A program made the translations under genes and the position numbers. A stretch of 64,000 nucleotides of DNA from Escherichia coli (GTDB taxonomy: Bacteria > Pseudomonadota > Gammaproteobacteria > Enterobacterales > Enterobacteriaceae), in the NCBI RefSeq assembly GCF_045037415.1, contig NZ_CP173440.1; one strand, 5' to 3'. The notes beneath the pieces were generated by a model. It was given only the letters and a program-made list of their open reading frames with translations. It was not told the DNA's origin and did no database searches. Shown here one piece after another: positions 27,772 to 49,306 of the stretch; the first letter of the stretch is position 1, and every line of letters begins with the position of its first letter.

Positions 27772-28023
27772 AATGTCATCAATCACTACATCAAAACCTG
27801 TGAACATCTCCGAAATGTGATCACATTCTTCAAATTGCTGAGCGGTAGGGTATAGAGCATCGGGAACCTCAAGTTCAGCCAAACATGATTTACCAGACCC
27901 GGTTTCTCCAATAATAAATACAAGAGCTTTATCTTCTGTTTGCTTGAGATATTTAGTAATGACCCCCATGTTATCCTCAAGATTTTTCATTACTAAAGCA
28001 GGTAAGTTTTTATCAAGATTCAT
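27772..28023 (-). pseudogene. N-terminal half of small P-loop protein, truncated by the IS
   Basis: Walker A IIGETGSGKS and Walker B-like FDVVIDDI, then the IS-supplied stop. The C-terminal half is at 54632..54862 on the other strand. Confidence 0.8.
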
Positions 28024-28074
28024 GTTAAACCTCTTATTAAATTTACTGTTATAGAAAAATTGACAACACGGTAT

Positions 28075-28485
28075 TTATTCATTCTTCCAGTACGTTACAC
28101 CATCGTCACAGAGATACCCTGTCTGGTCAGGTTCACCTCCAATAAAAACACCAGCCTGACCTTTTAGTGAAACACCCACTCCCGTCGTGGTAGCACCTTC
28201 TCTTTTTTCTATAACTTTGCAATGCTCAGCTGCAAAGTCTCGCCAGTCCTGTTCCTTCTGGTCGCTTGCCAACACCAAAACCACCAGCACGGACATAACT
28301 CCACACAGGAGTGCAATGCCAGCCAGTCCGGAAGCAAATGTTGTCAGTAAAGAAAAGTCCTTAAACAAAACAGCGCCAAGAACCAATACCACAAGCAAGG
28401 CATAAAAAATTACTGCTCCGTTACTTGTTAATAATGACGTTCCCCAATCCCAAAAGGAATTAACAGTAATTTCACTCTGCGTCAT
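28075..28485 (-). CDS. membrane protein
   Basis: MTQSEIT start after an AAGGTGAG SD; 3 TM helices. Confidence 0.55.
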   Translation of the reverse strand: MTQSEITVNSFWDWGTSLLTSNGAVIFYALLVVLVLGAVLFKDFSLLTTFASGLAGIALLCGVMSVLVVLVLASDQKEQDWRDFAAEHCKVIEKREGATTTGVGVSLKGQAGVFIGGEPDQTGYLCDDGVTYWKNE

Positions 28486-28514
28486 AATTCTCACCTTCAG
28501 TTTAATGGAAATCT

Positions 28515-28922
28515 TCAAACAAAGTCTAAAACTGTGCTGAATTGTTCTGCTTCAGGTAACATCGGCTTCAGCCCACTACGTCTTGCAATGCGAGTAACGA
28601 GTATTAATGTATCGGTCGTATCAGGCAAAGTTATTTGTTTGTGAGAAATTCGGATATCGTCTTCATTAACCATGGAAACATCTACATCGCCAACGCCAAT
28701 GGTGATTGAGAATGTCTTATCCGAACCGTAAAAAAGCACCAGCTCAGTTAATGGTCCACCAGCCCGATAACAAGTCAGGGACATTTTATGAATGCTGCCA
28801 ATATTTGAAATGCAGCTATCAATGAAGTCATCGGCATGCTCGTGCTGAATAAGACGATCTGTAGAGGTAACTCCATACAGAAACTTTAAGTGGTTACCAT
28901 TTGATTGATTGATACCTTTCAT
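28515..28922 (-). CDS. hypothetical protein
   Basis: 135-aa ORF; its stop overlaps the next ORF. Confidence 0.55.
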   Translation of the reverse strand: MKGINQSNGNHLKFLYGVTSTDRLIQHEHADDFIDSCISNIGSIHKMSLTCYRAGGPLTELVLFYGSDKTFSITIGVGDVDVSMVNEDDIRISHKQITLPDTTDTLILVTRIARRSGLKPMLPEAEQFSTVLDFV

Positions 28923-28931
28923 TAATTAGCC

Positions 28932-29339
28932 TTAGGAGTTATTTTTGTTAAAAAGCATTGCCACTGAGCCTATACCTAAAAGGACGGTCATACCGTAAAG
29001 CAAATACGATGAAATATTGTAGAGATCAAAACCGAGTATGGTGCGTGCTTTTTCATCCGGCAAAACCACGGTAAATATAAGGTTCCACAAAGCAATTAAA
29101 ATTATCTGGGCACCAAATAATCTAGGCAACGCGCCAAGTTCTTCGAATGCAAACAAACACATAGTCACAACCAACACAACCATAATGCCAATGAATGAAC
29201 ATAATATCGCTGAAATCCCAAAACCAAACGCAGTAAACACAATTGATTCTTTGGCGGTTAATCCCGTGACTCCGTAGACCAATAGCACCATAATAATAAA
29301 AAAAAGAAAACCCTTTATAAATGCCATAAAATCACCCAA
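28932..29339 (-). CDS. membrane protein
   Basis: 135 aa with 4 TM helices. Confidence 0.55.
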   Translation of the reverse strand: MGDFMAFIKGFLFFIIMVLLVYGVTGLTAKESIVFTAFGFGISAILCSFIGIMVVLVVTMCLFAFEELGALPRLFGAQIILIALWNLIFTVVLPDEKARTILGFDLYNISSYLLYGMTVLLGIGSVAMLFNKNNS

Positions 29340-29517
29340 GATTATTAGAAAATGATCTTTTGTTGGCCAAACAGAAGCTTACAATAACAATGTATTTAAA
29401 CCAATAAATCATTCAACCTATTTTATGTTGTAAGCAACTGAATTTAGCCTTCTGGAATTTCTAAAAGATTTATCGAGCCTCATAAAAGATAAAATTCCTG
29501 CTCAGCCTTTCTCCCGC

Positions 29518-29700
29518 TTACGCGCAATTAAATCCCTGCGACGCAACCAGCGGTGAAATATATCTTATGAGTAAATTAAAAACAAAGCCGAGTGTAAGGC
29601 TCAGGATTAACACCACGATAAAGCGATGTGGGTCTTTACCCAGAACAATATCTAAAAATCTTCGCATGATATTTGTAAGATAATTTAAAAAAAGAACCAT
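29518..29700 (-). CDS. small membrane protein
   Basis: 60 aa with 2 TM helices. Confidence 0.4.
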   Translation of the reverse strand: MVLFLNYLTNIMRRFLDIVLGKDPHRFIVVLILSLTLGFVFNLLIRYISPLVASQGFNCA

Positions 29701-29742
29701 CTTTTATCCCCTTCTATACCAATTCACAAATCATGAGGCAAG

Positions 29743-29760
29743 CCGGGGAAAACTCCCCGG
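29743..29760 (-). terminator. hairpin after the parB-like gene
   Basis: CCGGGG-AAAACT-CCCCGG, 15 nt past the stop. Confidence 0.45.
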
Positions 29761-29774
29761 TTACGCCTTAAATA

Positions 29775-47469: not shown

Positions 47470-47475
47470 CTCTTA

Positions 47476-47492
47476 GCAAAAGTAACTTTTGC
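47476..47492. promoter_or_regulatory. palindromic motif copy GCAAAAGTAACTTTTGC
   Basis: 17-bp perfect palindrome, 7 nt upstream of start 47469, directly before the RBS. Confidence 0.6.
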
Positions 47493-47504
47493 GAGTGGGT
47501 TTTA

Positions 47505-47984
47505 TCAGTGCAGCATCAATTCCTGAGCCGTAGATTGCCCGCGATGCCCAGCATCAATAACCGCCATCATCGGCTCAGCAATACCGACTACATCCTCGTC
47601 AATACCAGCACAACGACAGACCACATCAATGATCGCCAGAAGTTCATTAAGCGTCATCGGCTCATCAATCTTCACTTGCGTAATATCTTTCTTAATAATC
47701 GCATCACGGGCAGCACTATGCCGTTTCTGGTTATATAGCCAGACTGCATGGGTATTAGGTACCTGTTCACCGGGTGCGGAATTGTCAGTGTCTGAGTCTG
47801 CTACAAAAATGCCAACCTGGTTTTCAATCCCTGCGCACTGGCAGATTGAATTTGTCAGCTCCAGAAGCTGATTCAGTGTAGGAGAACAGAGCAACTCAAT
47901 TGATGATGTTGCACGGGCCTTAATAGCGCTTGCTACAGTGTCATGATGTTTTTTGCTGTAAAACGACACGGTCATGTTACTCAT
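47505..47984 (-). CDS. hypothetical protein with internal duplication
   Basis: ...LNQLLELTNSICQCAGIENQVGIF... is repeated as ...LNELLAIIDVVCRCAGIDEDVVGIA... Confidence 0.55.
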   Translation of the reverse strand: MSNMTVSFYSKKHHDTVASAIKARATSSIELLCSPTLNQLLELTNSICQCAGIENQVGIFVADSDTDNSAPGEQVPNTHAVWLYNQKRHSAARDAIIKKDITQVKIDEPMTLNELLAIIDVVCRCAGIDEDVVGIAEPMMAVIDAGHRGQSTAQELMLH

Positions 47985-48067
47985 GGTGTTTTTCCTTCTA
48001 TGCTTTTCCGTAAATTGACTGAGTGGCCTGTATGTAGAGAGTGGAACAGGCCAGTACAGGTAATGCT

Positions 48068-48274
48068 TTACTGACCGGTAGTTTTGCCTTCCTGAGGTTC
48101 GTCTTTAGAAGACGCCCTTTTTTTCAGTCCAAAACGACCAGCAAAGTAGGCCAGCGCCAGGATGGCGTATACCTGCCAGAAAGGCCAGTCCGAAAGGAAA
48201 TAGCCCATGTGGTAGGAGAGGATCAACAGCCCGATGATGGGTACCAGTAATGCTTCCCGTTTAATGTTTTTCAT
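48068..48274 (-). CDS. small membrane protein
   Basis: 68 aa with 2 TM helices. Confidence 0.5.
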   Translation of the reverse strand: MKNIKREALLVPIIGLLILSYHMGYFLSDWPFWQVYAILALAYFAGRFGLKKRASSKDEPQEGKTTGQ

Positions 48275-48284
48275 TTCTACCTCA

Positions 48285-48295
48285 AAAGTGACTTT
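48285..48295. promoter_or_regulatory. palindromic motif copy (centre G)
   Basis: AAAGTGACTTT, 11 nt upstream of start 48274. Confidence 0.5.
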
Positions 48296-48351
48296 TATTG
48301 GTTAATTTGTGCCTGTGGCATAGTAATGACACTATTCTTTACTTCTCTCTC

Positions 48352-48882
48352 CTAGTCGCAGTTCACCCCCACTACAAAAAGGACCAGCCCAGTGGTGACA
48401 TTAAGGCTTCTGAGATCGGTCTGTTCTGTGGTTAAGGCCCTGAGATTGGCGTCAGTCGCATCCAAGGGGTATAGCGCCTGTGTCAACAGGAGAGCATTTT
48501 CATCCGAGCAGGTTAAACCGAGAGAAATAACGTATGACTGATAATTCAGCCGTACCCGCTTCTGTTCCTCGTCGCCCGCGCAGTTAAAATAATCGAGCGA
48601 GCGTGGCTCAAATGCCTCATCTGCAATGCTCTCCAGCACCCCATGTTTTTGAGGCATGATCTGCAATGGTAATACCGCTGCCGGGAACTGGTTACAACTG
48701 TGGCCTCCGCATTGTTCTTCGCCAAGGAACCAGTCCTGGGAAGGTGACTCCGGAACTATCTTCGTTGAAGCCAGCACCAAAGCAGGGTATTGATCGTCAT
48801 GACAGAACCAGGGGGCAAAATGCTTCTCCGAAATATCGGATATATTTCTTCCATACAGAATCGGTGGAATAGAGGATTTCAT
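48352..48882 (-). CDS. hypothetical protein
   Basis: 176-aa ORF. Confidence 0.55.
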   Translation of the reverse strand: MKSSIPPILYGRNISDISEKHFAPWFCHDDQYPALVLASTKIVPESPSQDWFLGEEQCGGHSCNQFPAAVLPLQIMPQKHGVLESIADEAFEPRSLDYFNCAGDEEQKRVRLNYQSYVISLGLTCSDENALLLTQALYPLDATDANLRALTTEQTDLRSLNVTTGLVLFVVGVNCD

Positions 48883-49015
48883 TACTCTGACCTGCCTTAA
48901 TTTTTGATTATCTTTCTAACCAGATATCTTCTGCTTGTCCGAAACATAATTCACTCTTCCATACATAACCACCATATACTTGAAGTGTATCCTGATATGC
49001 AGTGGAGATTCTGGC

Positions 49016-49306
49016 TTAAGACGATAAATTGTCTTTTGAATAAAATTTATTTTCCTGCATGCTGGATACGGCGAATTTTCTGTTTATCTGGTACTGAAAC
49101 TGGCGGCGTGCAGCCAGGGAATAGGATATGTATTCGTGCCCGCACTGCCTGCATTTACACATATAACCTGTACCTTTAGTTGCGAGTACTGATACATCTC
49201 CCCATCCGTTATGATCCAGACCCGCCCTTAAACGGTGCCAGTTTTTTTCATAGCAGGGCAAGCAGCGTAGGCTTCGATTTCTTCGGCAACTTCCACGTTC
49301 ACCCAT
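49016..49306 (-). CDS. hypothetical Cys-rich protein
   Basis: 96-aa ORF; CLPC...CKCRQCGH. Confidence 0.4.
   Translation of the reverse strand: MGERGSCRRNRSLRCLPCYEKNWHRLRAGLDHNGWGDVSVLATKGTGYMCKCRQCGHEYISYSLAARRQFQYQINRKFAVSSMQENKFYSKDNLSS

Follow-up and report, generated by a model that had tools for sequence, protein, structure and literature searches.

A conserved array of co-directional small genes beside the repHI1B replicon of an IncHI1B megaplasmid, and a palindrome that may place it under KorB-like control

Gene content and plasmid context of the array

In the window analysed here (the whole stretch of 64,000 nucleotides), a run of 44 co-directional ORFs (g01 to g44, encoding 46-413 aa) occupies positions 27769-49638 of the minus strand according to the six-frame ORF list and the RefSeq annotation of identical plasmids. 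About 40 of these ORFs are annotated by RefSeq, all on a single strand, in identical or related plasmids. PHROG matches were obtained for 22 of the 44 products and for none of the nine longest plus-strand ORFs, which bears out the sequence-only reading that all credible ORFs lie on the minus strand. In transcription order, g44 and g43 come first, adjoining repB/oriV, and g01 comes last, beside IS4321. The translational coupling proposed earlier is seen as ATGA overlaps at 37657, 41252 and 42142 and as a stop directly abutting a start (TAG followed by ATG) at 40610/40611, but the overlap at 28515 would require a TTG start (TTGA), and RefSeq starts g02 with the ATG at 28485. Further overlaps involve g28/g27 (14 nt) and g14/g13 (41 nt). 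The non-coding share of the run is about 22%, and intergenic gaps split it into at least 10 units. As had been described, the products are mostly small (39 of 44 below 200 aa) and often acidic, Cys-rich or hydrophobic: pI values are below 5.5 in about 18 and at least 9 in about 15 of the 44, and several products are Cys-rich or hydrophobic.

Judged by sequence identity, the window belongs to the backbone of a Klebsiella pneumoniae IncHI1B (pNDM-MAR-type, MOBH) resistance megaplasmid. In PLSDB, more than 200 plasmids (IncHI1B/IncFIB, MOBH) carry the run at 100% identity, in agreement with the plasmid origin suspected before. NZ_CP072809, NZ_CP141906 and the diverged pKpNDM1 all show the order repB, run, g06 and umuD(C). 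Of these, pKpNDM1 retains 31 of the 44 run genes in synteny, with amino-acid identities of 40-97%, and the 13 genes absent from it cluster mid-run. The run combines conserved ends with a mosaic middle, which is built largely from gene families common to temperate phages. Upstream of the run and co-directional with it lies repB (52234..53385, minus strand), encoding the IncHI1B Rep_3-type initiator, and repeat analysis revealed four 26-nt direct repeats at 51772..52051 as putative repHI1B iterons. The run is a real, conserved accessory arm of about 22 kb of the IncHI1B backbone, adjoining the repHI1B replicon.

Two predicted enzymes named in the earlier reading could be substantiated. The product of g10 (32643..33251, minus strand) is class-I SAM-methyltransferase-like with a GxGxG motif; it matches phrog_15480 'methyltransferase' (2.8e-35) and, weakly, the Pfam families RrnaAD, Methyltransf_25 and spermidine-synthase. 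The g14 product (34222..34989, minus strand) carries a C-terminal DUF550/dATP-dGTP pyrophosphohydrolase (MazG/MazZ-like) domain (PF04447, E 2.7e-38), with a weak match to the MazZ structure 7ody; this gene lies in the variable middle and is missing from pKpNDM1. Other minus-strand genes encode proteins of DUF families: g34 (43883..44203; DUF5983 C-terminal domain, PF19419, E 4.3e-20), g35 (44257..45126; DUF4942), g36 (45515..46096; DUF6012, PF19475, E 7.6e-35) and g09 (31900..32355; DUF957 by RefSeq), whose acidic product is predicted to be helical with a disordered acidic centre (AF2 model pLDDT only 59.9). A Rossmann methyltransferase fold was considered for g35 and rejected, because its confident model has no solved structural relative. 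Matches to ArdA, KlcA, PsiB and SSB, or to other known anti-defence, SOS-inhibition or SSB families, were found for none of the run products in Pfam, NCBIfam, PHROGs and PADLOC, as the first inspection had also concluded.

The gene content recalls the early accessory ('ea', nin, moron) regions of temperate phages, given the 22 products in PHROG families, nearly all of them families without assigned function. Klebsiella phages show nucleotide-level matches to short stretches of the run, and the C-terminus of g21 shares 92-95% nucleotide identity with Klebsiella phage Eaa proteins. DUF957, DUF5983 and DUF4942 co-occur in E. coli and Shigella CP4-type islands. Two of these three are named in PMC6980539. 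Unlike in phages and islands, the run genes reside on a conjugative plasmid backbone with plasmid-specific promoters and palindromes. Function is likewise not assigned for the phage and island relatives, so that the run genes, half of them phage-shared, are not ordinary prophage morons with known functions.

A backbone-wide palindrome and a run-specific promoter-like module

The run is punctuated by a 13-bp palindrome, RAAAGTNACTTTY. The sequence AAAGTWACTTT occurs in 25 exact copies in the window versus 0.05 expected, and RAAAGTNACTTTY in 83 copies versus 0.3 expected in the 167.5 kb backbone of one 283-kb plasmid; none was found in the 116 kb of cargo of that plasmid. The palindrome coordinates given in the sequence-only reading, from 31127-31885 to 49579, are all correct. 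Six copies (31127, 31339, 31393, 31429, 31581 and 31875) form a cluster at 31127..31885 directly upstream of g06, within which lie the doubtful small ORFs g07 and g08. The orthologous cluster is kept in pKpNDM1 (locus L009, 19096-19841) and in K. grimontii (locus L012). A copy at 37265..37275, AAAGTAACTTT, precedes g19 and lies 11 nt upstream of a promoter-like site, TTGGTC-17-GATAAT. Others are found at 39777..39787 (g24-g23 gap), 43469..43479 (g33-g32 gap, 102 nt before the g32 ATG) and 47479..47489 (g40-g39 gap), and those at 38666..38676 and 45234..45244 are located 22 and 26 nt upstream of the -35 elements of the g21 and g35 modules described below. The variant AAAGTGACTTT, with a central G, occurs at 48285..48295, 11 nt before the g41 ATG, and at 49579..49589, upstream of g43 and within the doubtful ORF g44. 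The palindrome occupies orthologous positions in the window and pKpNDM1 despite diverged flanks; the copies at 43469, 45234 and 47479 are kept in L009 at 8204, 6442 and 4203, respectively.

Outside the run, the window contains copies at 338, 379, 2466, 8650, 11365, 12041, 14795, 16677, 51306-52161, 57074 and 61475. There are 12 copies in 41 kb of IncHI2 and 15 in 50 kb of the IncHI1 plasmid R27, and loci of Photorhabdus and Buttiauxella on IncHI-like plasmids also carry the palindrome, a backbone-wide cis-element common to IncHI1B, IncHI1 (R27), IncHI2 and these IncHI-like plasmids. The earlier estimate of about nine co-regulated units is reasonable for the run, but the palindrome is a mark of the IncHI backbone as a whole and not of the run in particular. 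Of the 15 copies in the run, at least 13 fall between genes, despite its low non-coding share. Over the whole plasmid, about half of the 83 copies are intragenic; a simple operator would not usually be found there, which weighs against operator-based control, although intragenic KorB sites are known.

A second recurrent element is the sigma-70-like promoter module TTGNNN-16-TAWCCTGG, present in five copies, all in the run and on the coding (minus) strand: TTGATG-16-TATCCTGGGT before g06 (31069..31100), TTGCTT-16-TATCCTGGTT before g09 (32430..32461), TTGCAG-16-TAACCTGGTT before g21 (38612..38643), TTGCAC-16-TATCCTGGGT before g23 (39564..39595) and TTGATG-16-TATCCTGGTT before g35 (45176..45207). 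Four of the five are kept in pKpNDM1, among them the g35 module and, in identical form, the g06 module. The 283-kb plasmid contains no other genuine copy; the short box TAWCCTGGKT has one chance match, at cargo position 211105. Just past the g36 stop, a hairpin plus T run resembling an intrinsic terminator (45479..45501, minus strand; from a consensus scan only) would terminate the unit that precedes the g35 promoter. A generic promoter and terminator scan performed no better than on shuffled sequence. The recurrence of the module and its conservation across lineages argue for selected, coordinated transcription.

These observations bear on the possibility that the run has no collective function and is an accretion zone for phage- and island-derived 'moron' genes beside the origin, which we regard as unlikely. 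Co-directionality would then result only from avoiding collisions between replication and transcription, and the palindromes would act at the DNA level (ParB-type loading or condensation, partition, origin control) rather than in gene regulation. The mosaic middle would fit, pKpNDM1 having other genes in place of 13 of the 44, as would the phage families without assigned function that hold half of the products and the GC skew, which is uniformly negative in the run and turns at repB/oriV. Palindromes at 51306, 51477, 51594 and 52161 also flank the putative iterons, palindrome-like elements are interleaved with the RepHI1B iterons of R27, and elsewhere copies are often intragenic. Accretion alone is harder to reconcile with run palindromes that are nearly all intergenic and kept at orthologous positions, with a run-specific promoter module that recurs five times and is conserved across lineages, and with 31 genes retained in synteny at 40-97% identity.

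Distance from the inferred transfer origin

The run had been likened to a plasmid leading region. NZ_CP141906 has a sole relaxase module, mobI-mobH-traD, at 19.6-25.9 kb. The oriT of IncA/C plasmids is located just upstream of mobI (PMC5587640), and by analogy we infer the same location in NZ_CP141906. The run, at 83-105 kb, is separated from mobI by about 63 kb, of which about 31 kb are backbone when the resistance insert is subtracted. Between the two lie hok, a RES/Xre toxin-antitoxin pair, umuDC and a type IV-A3 CRISPR-Cas locus, and the run abuts the repHI1B replicon instead. The leading-region assignment thus finds no support, and we consider it quite improbable that the run is a true leading region that enters early, is transcribed from the T-strand and provides anti-defence and establishment functions. 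The usual polarity of transfer, in which the relaxase operon enters last, would bring the run in late with the coding strand as the transferred strand; for MobI/MOBH systems, no polarity was found in the literature searched. With mobI-first transfer, the run genes would instead have the transferred strand as their template. Orientation is in keeping with this, since hok, umuDC, CRISPR-Cas and run genes of NZ_CP141906 all point towards mobI/oriT, and in IncHI2 the array with the g06 homologue is convergent with the mobI-mobH-traD operon, facing its 3' end at only about 15 kb from mobI. The methyltransferase-like gene and the many small acidic proteins of the run would also fit a leading region.

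Two known leading regions illustrate likeness and difference. The CUP promoter cassettes of the IncN plasmids pKM101/R46 reportedly form a leading-region regulon (ArdK/ArdR; Delver and Belogurov 1997). As in the run, a conserved promoter cassette is repeated before co-directional units of small genes under a presumed plasmid repressor, but the CUP set adjoins oriT and includes ardA, ardB and ccg, whereas the run adjoins the replicon, a long way from the inferred oriT, and none of its genes is recognisable as an anti-restriction gene. The F/ColIb leading region shares with the run its one-strand orientation, many uncharacterised small genes and a methyltransferase-like gene; it differs in being oriT-adjacent and in having ssb, psiB, ardA and Frpo/ssi promoters (PMC11541004), none of which was identified in the run, where Rfam likewise detected no structured element.

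g06 and possible KorB-like control

The gene behind the palindrome cluster, g06 (29775..31016, minus strand), encodes a 413-aa orphan ParB/KorB-type protein (phrog_1033, E 8.7e-23) with no adjacent ParA. It comprises an N-terminal ParB/Srx-like domain (GFNTR, RQGHCRxRA), a ParB-type HTH, an acidic Gly/Ser linker and a domain at the C-terminus. Among solved structures, the family profile matches those of ParB, Spo0J and Noc with E values of 1e-15 to 1e-13 and those of KorB (8qa8, 1r71) with 1.6e-5 and 7e-5, covering the CTPase-like and HTH domains; Pfam HTH_ParB is matched by 30 of 44 family members. The ParB-like protein noticed at the outset is thereby confirmed. The paralogue of g06 near tra also has the palindrome upstream, and so does every g06 relative examined (down to 33% identity), at about 10-270 bp, mostly about 100-120 bp. 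As every relative found is on an IncHI-like backbone, the joint occurrence of the protein and the motif cannot separate g06 from other conserved IncHI proteins, and the proposed link between g06 and the palindrome draws on domain type, proximity and conservation.

The closest parallel is the kil-kor system of RK2/RP4 (IncP-1), where a ParB-family HTH protein is likewise encoded among the genes to be controlled. Its operator OB (TTTAGCSGCTAAA) and RAAAGTNACTTTY are both 13 bp long with a 6-1-6 layout, copies occur at promoters, distant from promoters and within genes, and kla, klc and kle are co-directional small accessory operons whose function is not assigned, as here. The likeness of g06 to KorB is at profile level only, the family being closer to chromosomal ParB and Noc. 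Neither KorA nor IncC could be identified as a partner; the sites number 83 instead of the 12 of RK2, each plasmid has two g06-type paralogues, and binding and repression by g06 are putative.

A different regulator is conceivable. Measured from the presumed transcription start, the palindrome at three modules is centred about 66-71 nt upstream, and a position near -70 fits an activator or a distal site better than a repressor. This would suit a rather unlikely alternative in which the palindrome is not a site of g06 and belongs to the IncHI conjugation circuit (activators TrhR/TrhY versus HtdA), so that the run would belong to a regulon coupled to transfer, active along with the tra genes in donors competent for transfer. 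In NZ_CP141906, palindromes occur in the mobI-upstream region (19386, 19488), in the divergent trhA promoter region (four copies, 155650-155981) and between the Z-like and htdA-like operons (169303, 169627). On the other hand, neither an exact nor a one-mismatch copy is present at the R27 htdA (AN) and Z operon promoters, assigned by synteny and expected to respond; at least 10 of the 15 R27 copies are intragenic; the htdA-, trhR- and trhY-like proteins, identified by synteny only, have no DNA-binding domain in Pfam; and no binding site or cis-element of this circuit was found in the literature searched. Experiments in R27, from the same plasmid superfamily as the run, show that the circuit controls most backbone genes, non-tra genes without assigned function among them: in an htdA mutant, 139 of 181 expressed genes were derepressed, including 106 of 170 non-tra genes (PMC7366339). 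This provides a precedent for plasmid-wide repression among IncHI plasmids.

We give about even chances to the reading that the accessory arm beside repHI1B is under KorB-like global control via the palindrome. A global regulator encoded by the plasmid would bind the palindrome; the best candidates are g06, whose gene lies within the run immediately after the densest palindrome cluster, and the paralogue encoded near tra. Control would extend over the at least 10 accessory operons of the run. In an established cell, g06 would keep expression of these operons and of much of the backbone at a low level, as KorB does in RK2; a burst of expression would follow when the plasmid enters a naive recipient or the control circuit is released. 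More tentatively, the products may be helpers in entry, host adaptation or anti-defence, with the methyltransferase-like g10, the dNTP pyrophosphohydrolase g14, the zinc-ribbon and membrane peptides and the acidic proteins as candidates.

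Plasmid context and content of the ORF run

The run of small ORFs at 27769–49638 is best supported as a replicon-proximal accessory arm of at least ten operons, with a promoter cassette of its own and set in a palindrome network that extends across the plasmid. Judged by sequence comparison, the window is backbone of the pNDM-MAR-type IncHI1B megaplasmid family, since a 21.5-kb interval was 100% identical in more than 200 K. pneumoniae plasmids of 200–430 kb and phage genomes gave only patchy matches to it (150–350 bp each). The matching plasmids are typed IncHI1B/IncFIB, with a MOBH relaxase and an MPF_F mating-pair system, and 345 records each cover at least 80% of the interval. 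The two complete relatives NZ_CP072809 and NZ_CP141906 share the order left arm (window 1–26 kb), repB (IncHI1B), run, type IV-A3 CRISPR-Cas, umuDC, RES/Xre and hok, with all genes from repB onwards on one strand. Compared with these plasmids, the repB-plus-run segment of the window is inverted; it lies between an inverted pair of IS4321 copies (26700–27704, minus strand, and 53366–54370, plus strand). Each of the relatives carries a single IS4321, and the junctions differ. The inversion probably arose by recombination between the IS4321 copies. Despite it, repB (52234–53385, minus strand) lies directly upstream of the run and is co-directional with it. Further along, we found the type IV-A3 CRISPR-Cas locus with a DinG-type helicase and Cas6 (54929–60397, plus strand) and a CRISPR array with a 29-nt repeat and a 61-nt period (60646–60796). 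At the Rfam gathering threshold the only match was a group II intron beyond the array (61771–63588; RF02005 at 61771–61996, reverse transcriptase ORF at 62101–63588), and the run had none.

A sequence-only reading had described about 40 small ORFs, all on the minus strand. We called 44 (g01–g44), of which RefSeq annotates about 40, all on the same strand, in three independent records. Most are preceded by a Shine-Dalgarno-like sequence; g07 (TTG start, overlapping a palindrome), g12, g13, g17 and g44 are doubtful. Half of the 44 products (22) fall into phage families of the PHROGs collection, nearly all labelled 'unknown function', versus none of the nine longest plus-strand ORFs used as control. 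The diverged relative pKpNDM1 (Raoultella) retains the order repB, array, g06, umuD, and 31 of the 44 genes are syntenic there at 40–97% amino-acid identity. The 13 absent genes (g05, g12–15, g17, g19–21, g23, g30, g31 and g44) cluster mid-run, where other genes take their place, so that by this comparison the ends of the run (g33–g43 and g01–g11) are conserved and its middle is mosaic and phage-like.

Pfam recognised only four domains among the 44 products: DUF550/dATP-dGTP pyrophosphohydrolase at the C-terminus of g14, DUF5983 in g34, DUF4942 in g35 (44257–45126) and DUF6012 in g36. NCBIfam and PADLOC gave no meaningful match for any product. The PHROG labels that name a function are 'ParB-like partition protein' for g06 (8.7e-23) and 'methyltransferase' for g10 (2.8e-35), along with a weaker match of g35 labelled 'DNA methyltransferase'. 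The SAM-methyltransferase-like protein of the run is g10, which has a GxGxG motif and weak Pfam methyltransferase matches, and not the DUF4942 protein g35. A structure model of the latter (AlphaFold, 57-sequence alignment, pLDDT 88.5) consists of a helical bundle and a small alpha/beta domain and lacks a Rossmann-type fold; we therefore rejected DUF4942 as a SAM-dependent DNA methyltransferase. As the model had no structural neighbour among solved structures, DUF4942 may represent a new fold or a new domain combination. The domain is widespread in enterobacterial islands, and in the IncHI1 plasmid R27 it adjoins the g06 homologue. For g09, annotated as DUF957, the AlphaFold model was too uncertain for use (pLDDT 59.9). 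No functional papers on DUF4942, DUF957, DUF5983 or DUF6012 were found in the literature searched. In several plasmids, PLSDB/RGI labels g25 (40287–40610) as 'AAC(3)-Ib/AAC(6')-Ib3 aminoglycoside resistance protein, 100% identity'. This label is probably a database artefact: g25 has no acetyltransferase domain and matches phrog_17934, a phage family without assigned function. Two products contain repeats, namely g15, a two-repeat acidic protein with an internal duplication (60-nt repeats at 35133–35192 and 35361–35420, 87% identical), and g19, with a 30-nt tandem repeat in 2.2 copies (37037–37104).

Promoter modules and the palindrome network

A generic sigma-70 and terminator scan of the run returned no more sites than shuffled sequence, and conserved modules were therefore used instead. 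Alignment of the sequences downstream of palindromes yielded a promoter-like module of the approximate form RGGGGCTTGNNN-N16-(G)TAWCCTGGKT, which can be read as a −35 element (TTGATG, TTGCAG, TTGCAC or TTGCTT) separated by 16 nt from a −10 element (TATCCT or TAACCT). Five copies, all on the coding strand, precede g06, g09, g21, g23 and g35; together with the palindrome where one is close by, they span 31069–31137, 32430–32461, 38612–38676, 39564–39595 and 45176–45244. No further genuine copy was found in the 283-kb plasmid NZ_CP141906, in which the short TAWCCTGGKT box has a lone chance match, in cargo (211105). For three of the five modules a palindrome lies 22–26 nt upstream of the −35 element, and four are kept in pKpNDM1 despite diverged spacers. 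If the modules are counted along with the remaining gaps that hold a palindrome and a good terminator-like hairpin following g36, the run probably comprises at least ten transcription units, which makes the earlier estimate of about nine a reasonable one. Of the junctions put forward for translational coupling, the ATGA overlaps at 37657, 41252 and 42142 and the TAG/ATG abutment at 40610/40611 are real; the overlap at 28515 was not upheld, as it requires a TTG start absent from the RefSeq annotation. The −10 boxes overlap CCWGG, the Dcm target (31073–31078, 32434–32439, 38616–38621, 39568–39573 and 45180–45185). The left arm carries a DNA cytosine methyltransferase gene (about 7360–8787) beside a type II restriction endonuclease gene (8877–10079).

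The palindrome, seen before as an operator of the run, has the consensus R-AAAGT-W-ACTTT-Y, and its core AAAGTWACTTT occurs 25 times in the window versus 0.05 expected copies. At least 13 of the 15 palindromes of the run lie in intergenic sequence, which makes up about 22% of it. The copies noticed earlier (31127–31885, 37265, 38666, 39777, 43469, 45234, 47479, 48285 and 49579) are all correctly placed, those at 48285 and 49579 having a central G. The palindrome is, however, not specific to the run. Outside it, RAAAGTNACTTTY is found at 338, 379, 2466, 8650, 11365, 12041, 14795, 16677, 51306, 51477, 51594, 52161, 57074 and 61475; the copy at 57074 lies inside the CRISPR-Cas helicase gene and that at 61475 beyond the end of the detected array and some 300 bp short of the intron. 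NZ_CP141906 (283.6 kb) holds 83 copies of AAAGTNACTTT versus about 0.3 expected, all in the IncHI1B backbone of about 167 kb and none in the 116 kb of resistance and other cargo. About 40–50% of these are intergenic, versus 14% non-coding sequence, and many lie inside tra and other genes. Two are located in the region upstream of mobI (19386 and 19488) and four in the divergent trhA promoter region. In the same plasmid, palindromes at 135469, 138051 and 140588 precede by 44–85 bp three consecutive 2.4-kb genes for Ig-like proteins. These are related to the RSP-type proteins of R27, which IncHI conjugation requires.

Other IncHI groups share the 11-mer: a 41-kb IncHI2 locus contains 12 copies and the first 50 kb of R27 contain 15, and it is also present on IncHI-like contigs from Photorhabdus and Buttiauxella. 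Protein identity between these groups is only about 35%. The window and pKpNDM1 have palindromes at orthologous positions. By this distribution, the palindrome is a property of the entire IncHI backbone and not of the run alone. Its motif strings had no relevant occurrence in the literature searched. It is not the RepB iteron, which is a different 26-nt direct repeat, and for a restriction-modification or Tus/Ter site it would be too long, too enriched and symmetric. The putative IncHI1B iterons, four direct repeats (GAACGTACGACGGTTAAT...) at 51772–52051 downstream of repB, are flanked by palindromes, and at 38300–39010 of R27 the RepHI1B iterons, with a 44-bp period, are interleaved with degenerate palindrome-like elements (CAAAAGGCACTTTT). 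Both arrangements hint that the reader of the palindrome may also be active at the origin.

Candidate readers of the palindrome

The most likely reader, as predicted from family profiles and genomic position, is g06, an orphan ParB/KorB-type protein of 413 aa (WP_004197197; 29775–31016, minus strand). As a single sequence, g06 has no match in Pfam or among PDB sequences. An exhaustive representative search recovered 255 relatives; a word-indexed search found only those at least 79% identical. With a 44-sequence family profile, ParB, Spo0J and Noc structures were matched at E-values of 1e-15 to 1e-13 and KorB structures at 1.6e-5 (8qa8) and 7e-5 (1r71), across both the CTPase-like domain and the HTH. 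Thirty of the 44 family members match Pfam HTH_ParB, and the GFNTR and RQGHCRxRA motifs are conserved in the alignment. The N-terminal CTPase-like domain plus HTH expected of the ParB-family regulator of a KorB-type regulon is therefore present in g06, and the palindrome has the corresponding distribution: among its 83 copies, multiple ones lie at promoters across the plasmid, including that of the candidate regulator itself (six before g06). We found no ParA or small HTH gene, i.e. no KorA-like or IncC-like partner, adjoining g06; the plasmid parAB is a separate locus (143.8–146.1 kb of NZ_CP141906). In its 6-1-6 layout and its promoter-proximal, distal and intragenic spread, the palindrome resembles the OB sites of KorB in RK2. 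No paper linking KorB-like proteins to IncHI was found in the literature searched.

Directly upstream of g06 lies the densest palindrome cluster of the plasmid arm, with six copies in 760 bp. A paralogue of g06 is encoded beside the tra genes (WP_004196657; NZ_CP141906 152061–153239) in another site-rich area, with 11 palindromes in 10 kb. A palindrome was present upstream of every g06 relative recovered, mostly by about 100–120 bp, the extremes being about 13 bp before the predicted start (Photorhabdus) and about 270 bp before the match (Buttiauxella). The rule also holds in IncHI2, K. grimontii, Pseudocitrobacter and Pantoea, and in R27 a one-mismatch palindrome lies 95 bp upstream of the g06 homologue. 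A locus search recovered g06 relatives on IncHI-like backbones only, so that their co-occurrence with the palindrome is also compatible with another conserved IncHI protein as binder.

One such alternative is that the palindrome could be the cis-element of the activators TrhR and TrhY, which are opposed by HtdA. In an R27 htdA mutant, 139 of 181 expressed genes were derepressed, including 106 of 170 non-tra genes, and HtdA works by opposing these two activators (PMC7366339). A circuit acting plasmid-wide agrees with a motif found backbone-wide, and a palindrome centre near −70 would suit an activator. However, the R27 htdA and Z operon promoters, assigned by synteny, contain no exact or one-mismatch palindrome, most R27 palindromes are intragenic, and the synteny-assigned htdA-, trhR- and trhY-like proteins have no DNA-binding domain in Pfam.

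Transfer, establishment and implications

The sequence-only reading likened the run to the leading region of a conjugative plasmid. The only relaxase module in NZ_CP141906 comprises mobI (19610), mobH and traD (19.6–25.9 kb). The oriT considered here is placed by MobI synteny with IncA/C plasmids, whose oriT directly precedes mobI and in which nic could not be mapped (PMC5587640). From mobI, the run (83–105 kb) is separated by about 63 kb, or about 31 kb without the resistance insert at 34.7–67.3 kb, and the interval contains toxin-antitoxin genes, umuDC and CRISPR-Cas. It does not adjoin the oriT placed in this way, as a leading region does. Its genes point towards mobI, and the transferred strand would therefore be the template only if transfer were mobI-first; under the conventional polarity, in which the relaxase comes last, the run would be late to enter and its coding strand would be transferred. 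The transfer polarity of any MobI/MOBH system was not found in the literature searched. In IncHI2, the g06 homologue is part of an array, about 15 kb from mobI, that converges with the mobI-mobH-traD operon at the latter's 3' end. As had been noticed from the sequence, the hallmark genes ssb, psiB, ardA and klcA/ardB have no match among the run products in Pfam, NCBIfam, PHROGs or PADLOC; the methyltransferase-like g10 is the sole orphan-methyltransferase candidate. Given the distance from the putative oriT and the absence of hallmark genes, assignment of the run to the leading-region class lacks support; an establishment-type role may still apply.

A further-reaching model, which we regard as unlikely in its entirety, would have the RAAAGTNACTTTY network (about one site per 2 kb) common to R27, R478-like and pNDM-MAR-like megaplasmids and their relatives in Photorhabdus and Buttiauxella. 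Orphan ParB/KorB-like clamps would load at the palindromes and silence most of the backbone. The run, as the part of this regulon with a dedicated promoter cassette, would be expressed in a burst when the plasmid reaches a naive host, delivering phage-derived host-takeover or anti-defence proteins. If this were true, the palindrome would be the cis-element so far lacking for the plasmid-wide effect of HtdA in R27. Apart from this model, the type of system proposed in the best-supported description, with small accessory operons under one global plasmid regulon, is known from IncP-1 and IncN plasmids; the version in this clinically dominant plasmid family seems not to have been described in the literature searched. 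If the run holds anti-defence functions, many temperate phages carry the same families, whose function is equally unknown there.

In epidemic clones of K. pneumoniae, IncHI1B/IncFIB hybrids are vehicles of NDM, OXA-48, CTX-M and hypervirulence genes, and in Salmonella, E. coli and Enterobacter resistance spreads on IncHI1 and IncHI2 plasmids. The unannotated run makes up about a tenth of the conserved backbone of these IncHI plasmids. The 13-bp palindrome throughout the backbones of all three IncHI groups, the repeated cassette of the run and g06 behind the densest cluster are direct experimental handles on how these megaplasmids silence some 200 genes and become established in a new host. Together, they may explain the plasmid-wide derepression in R27 htdA mutants.
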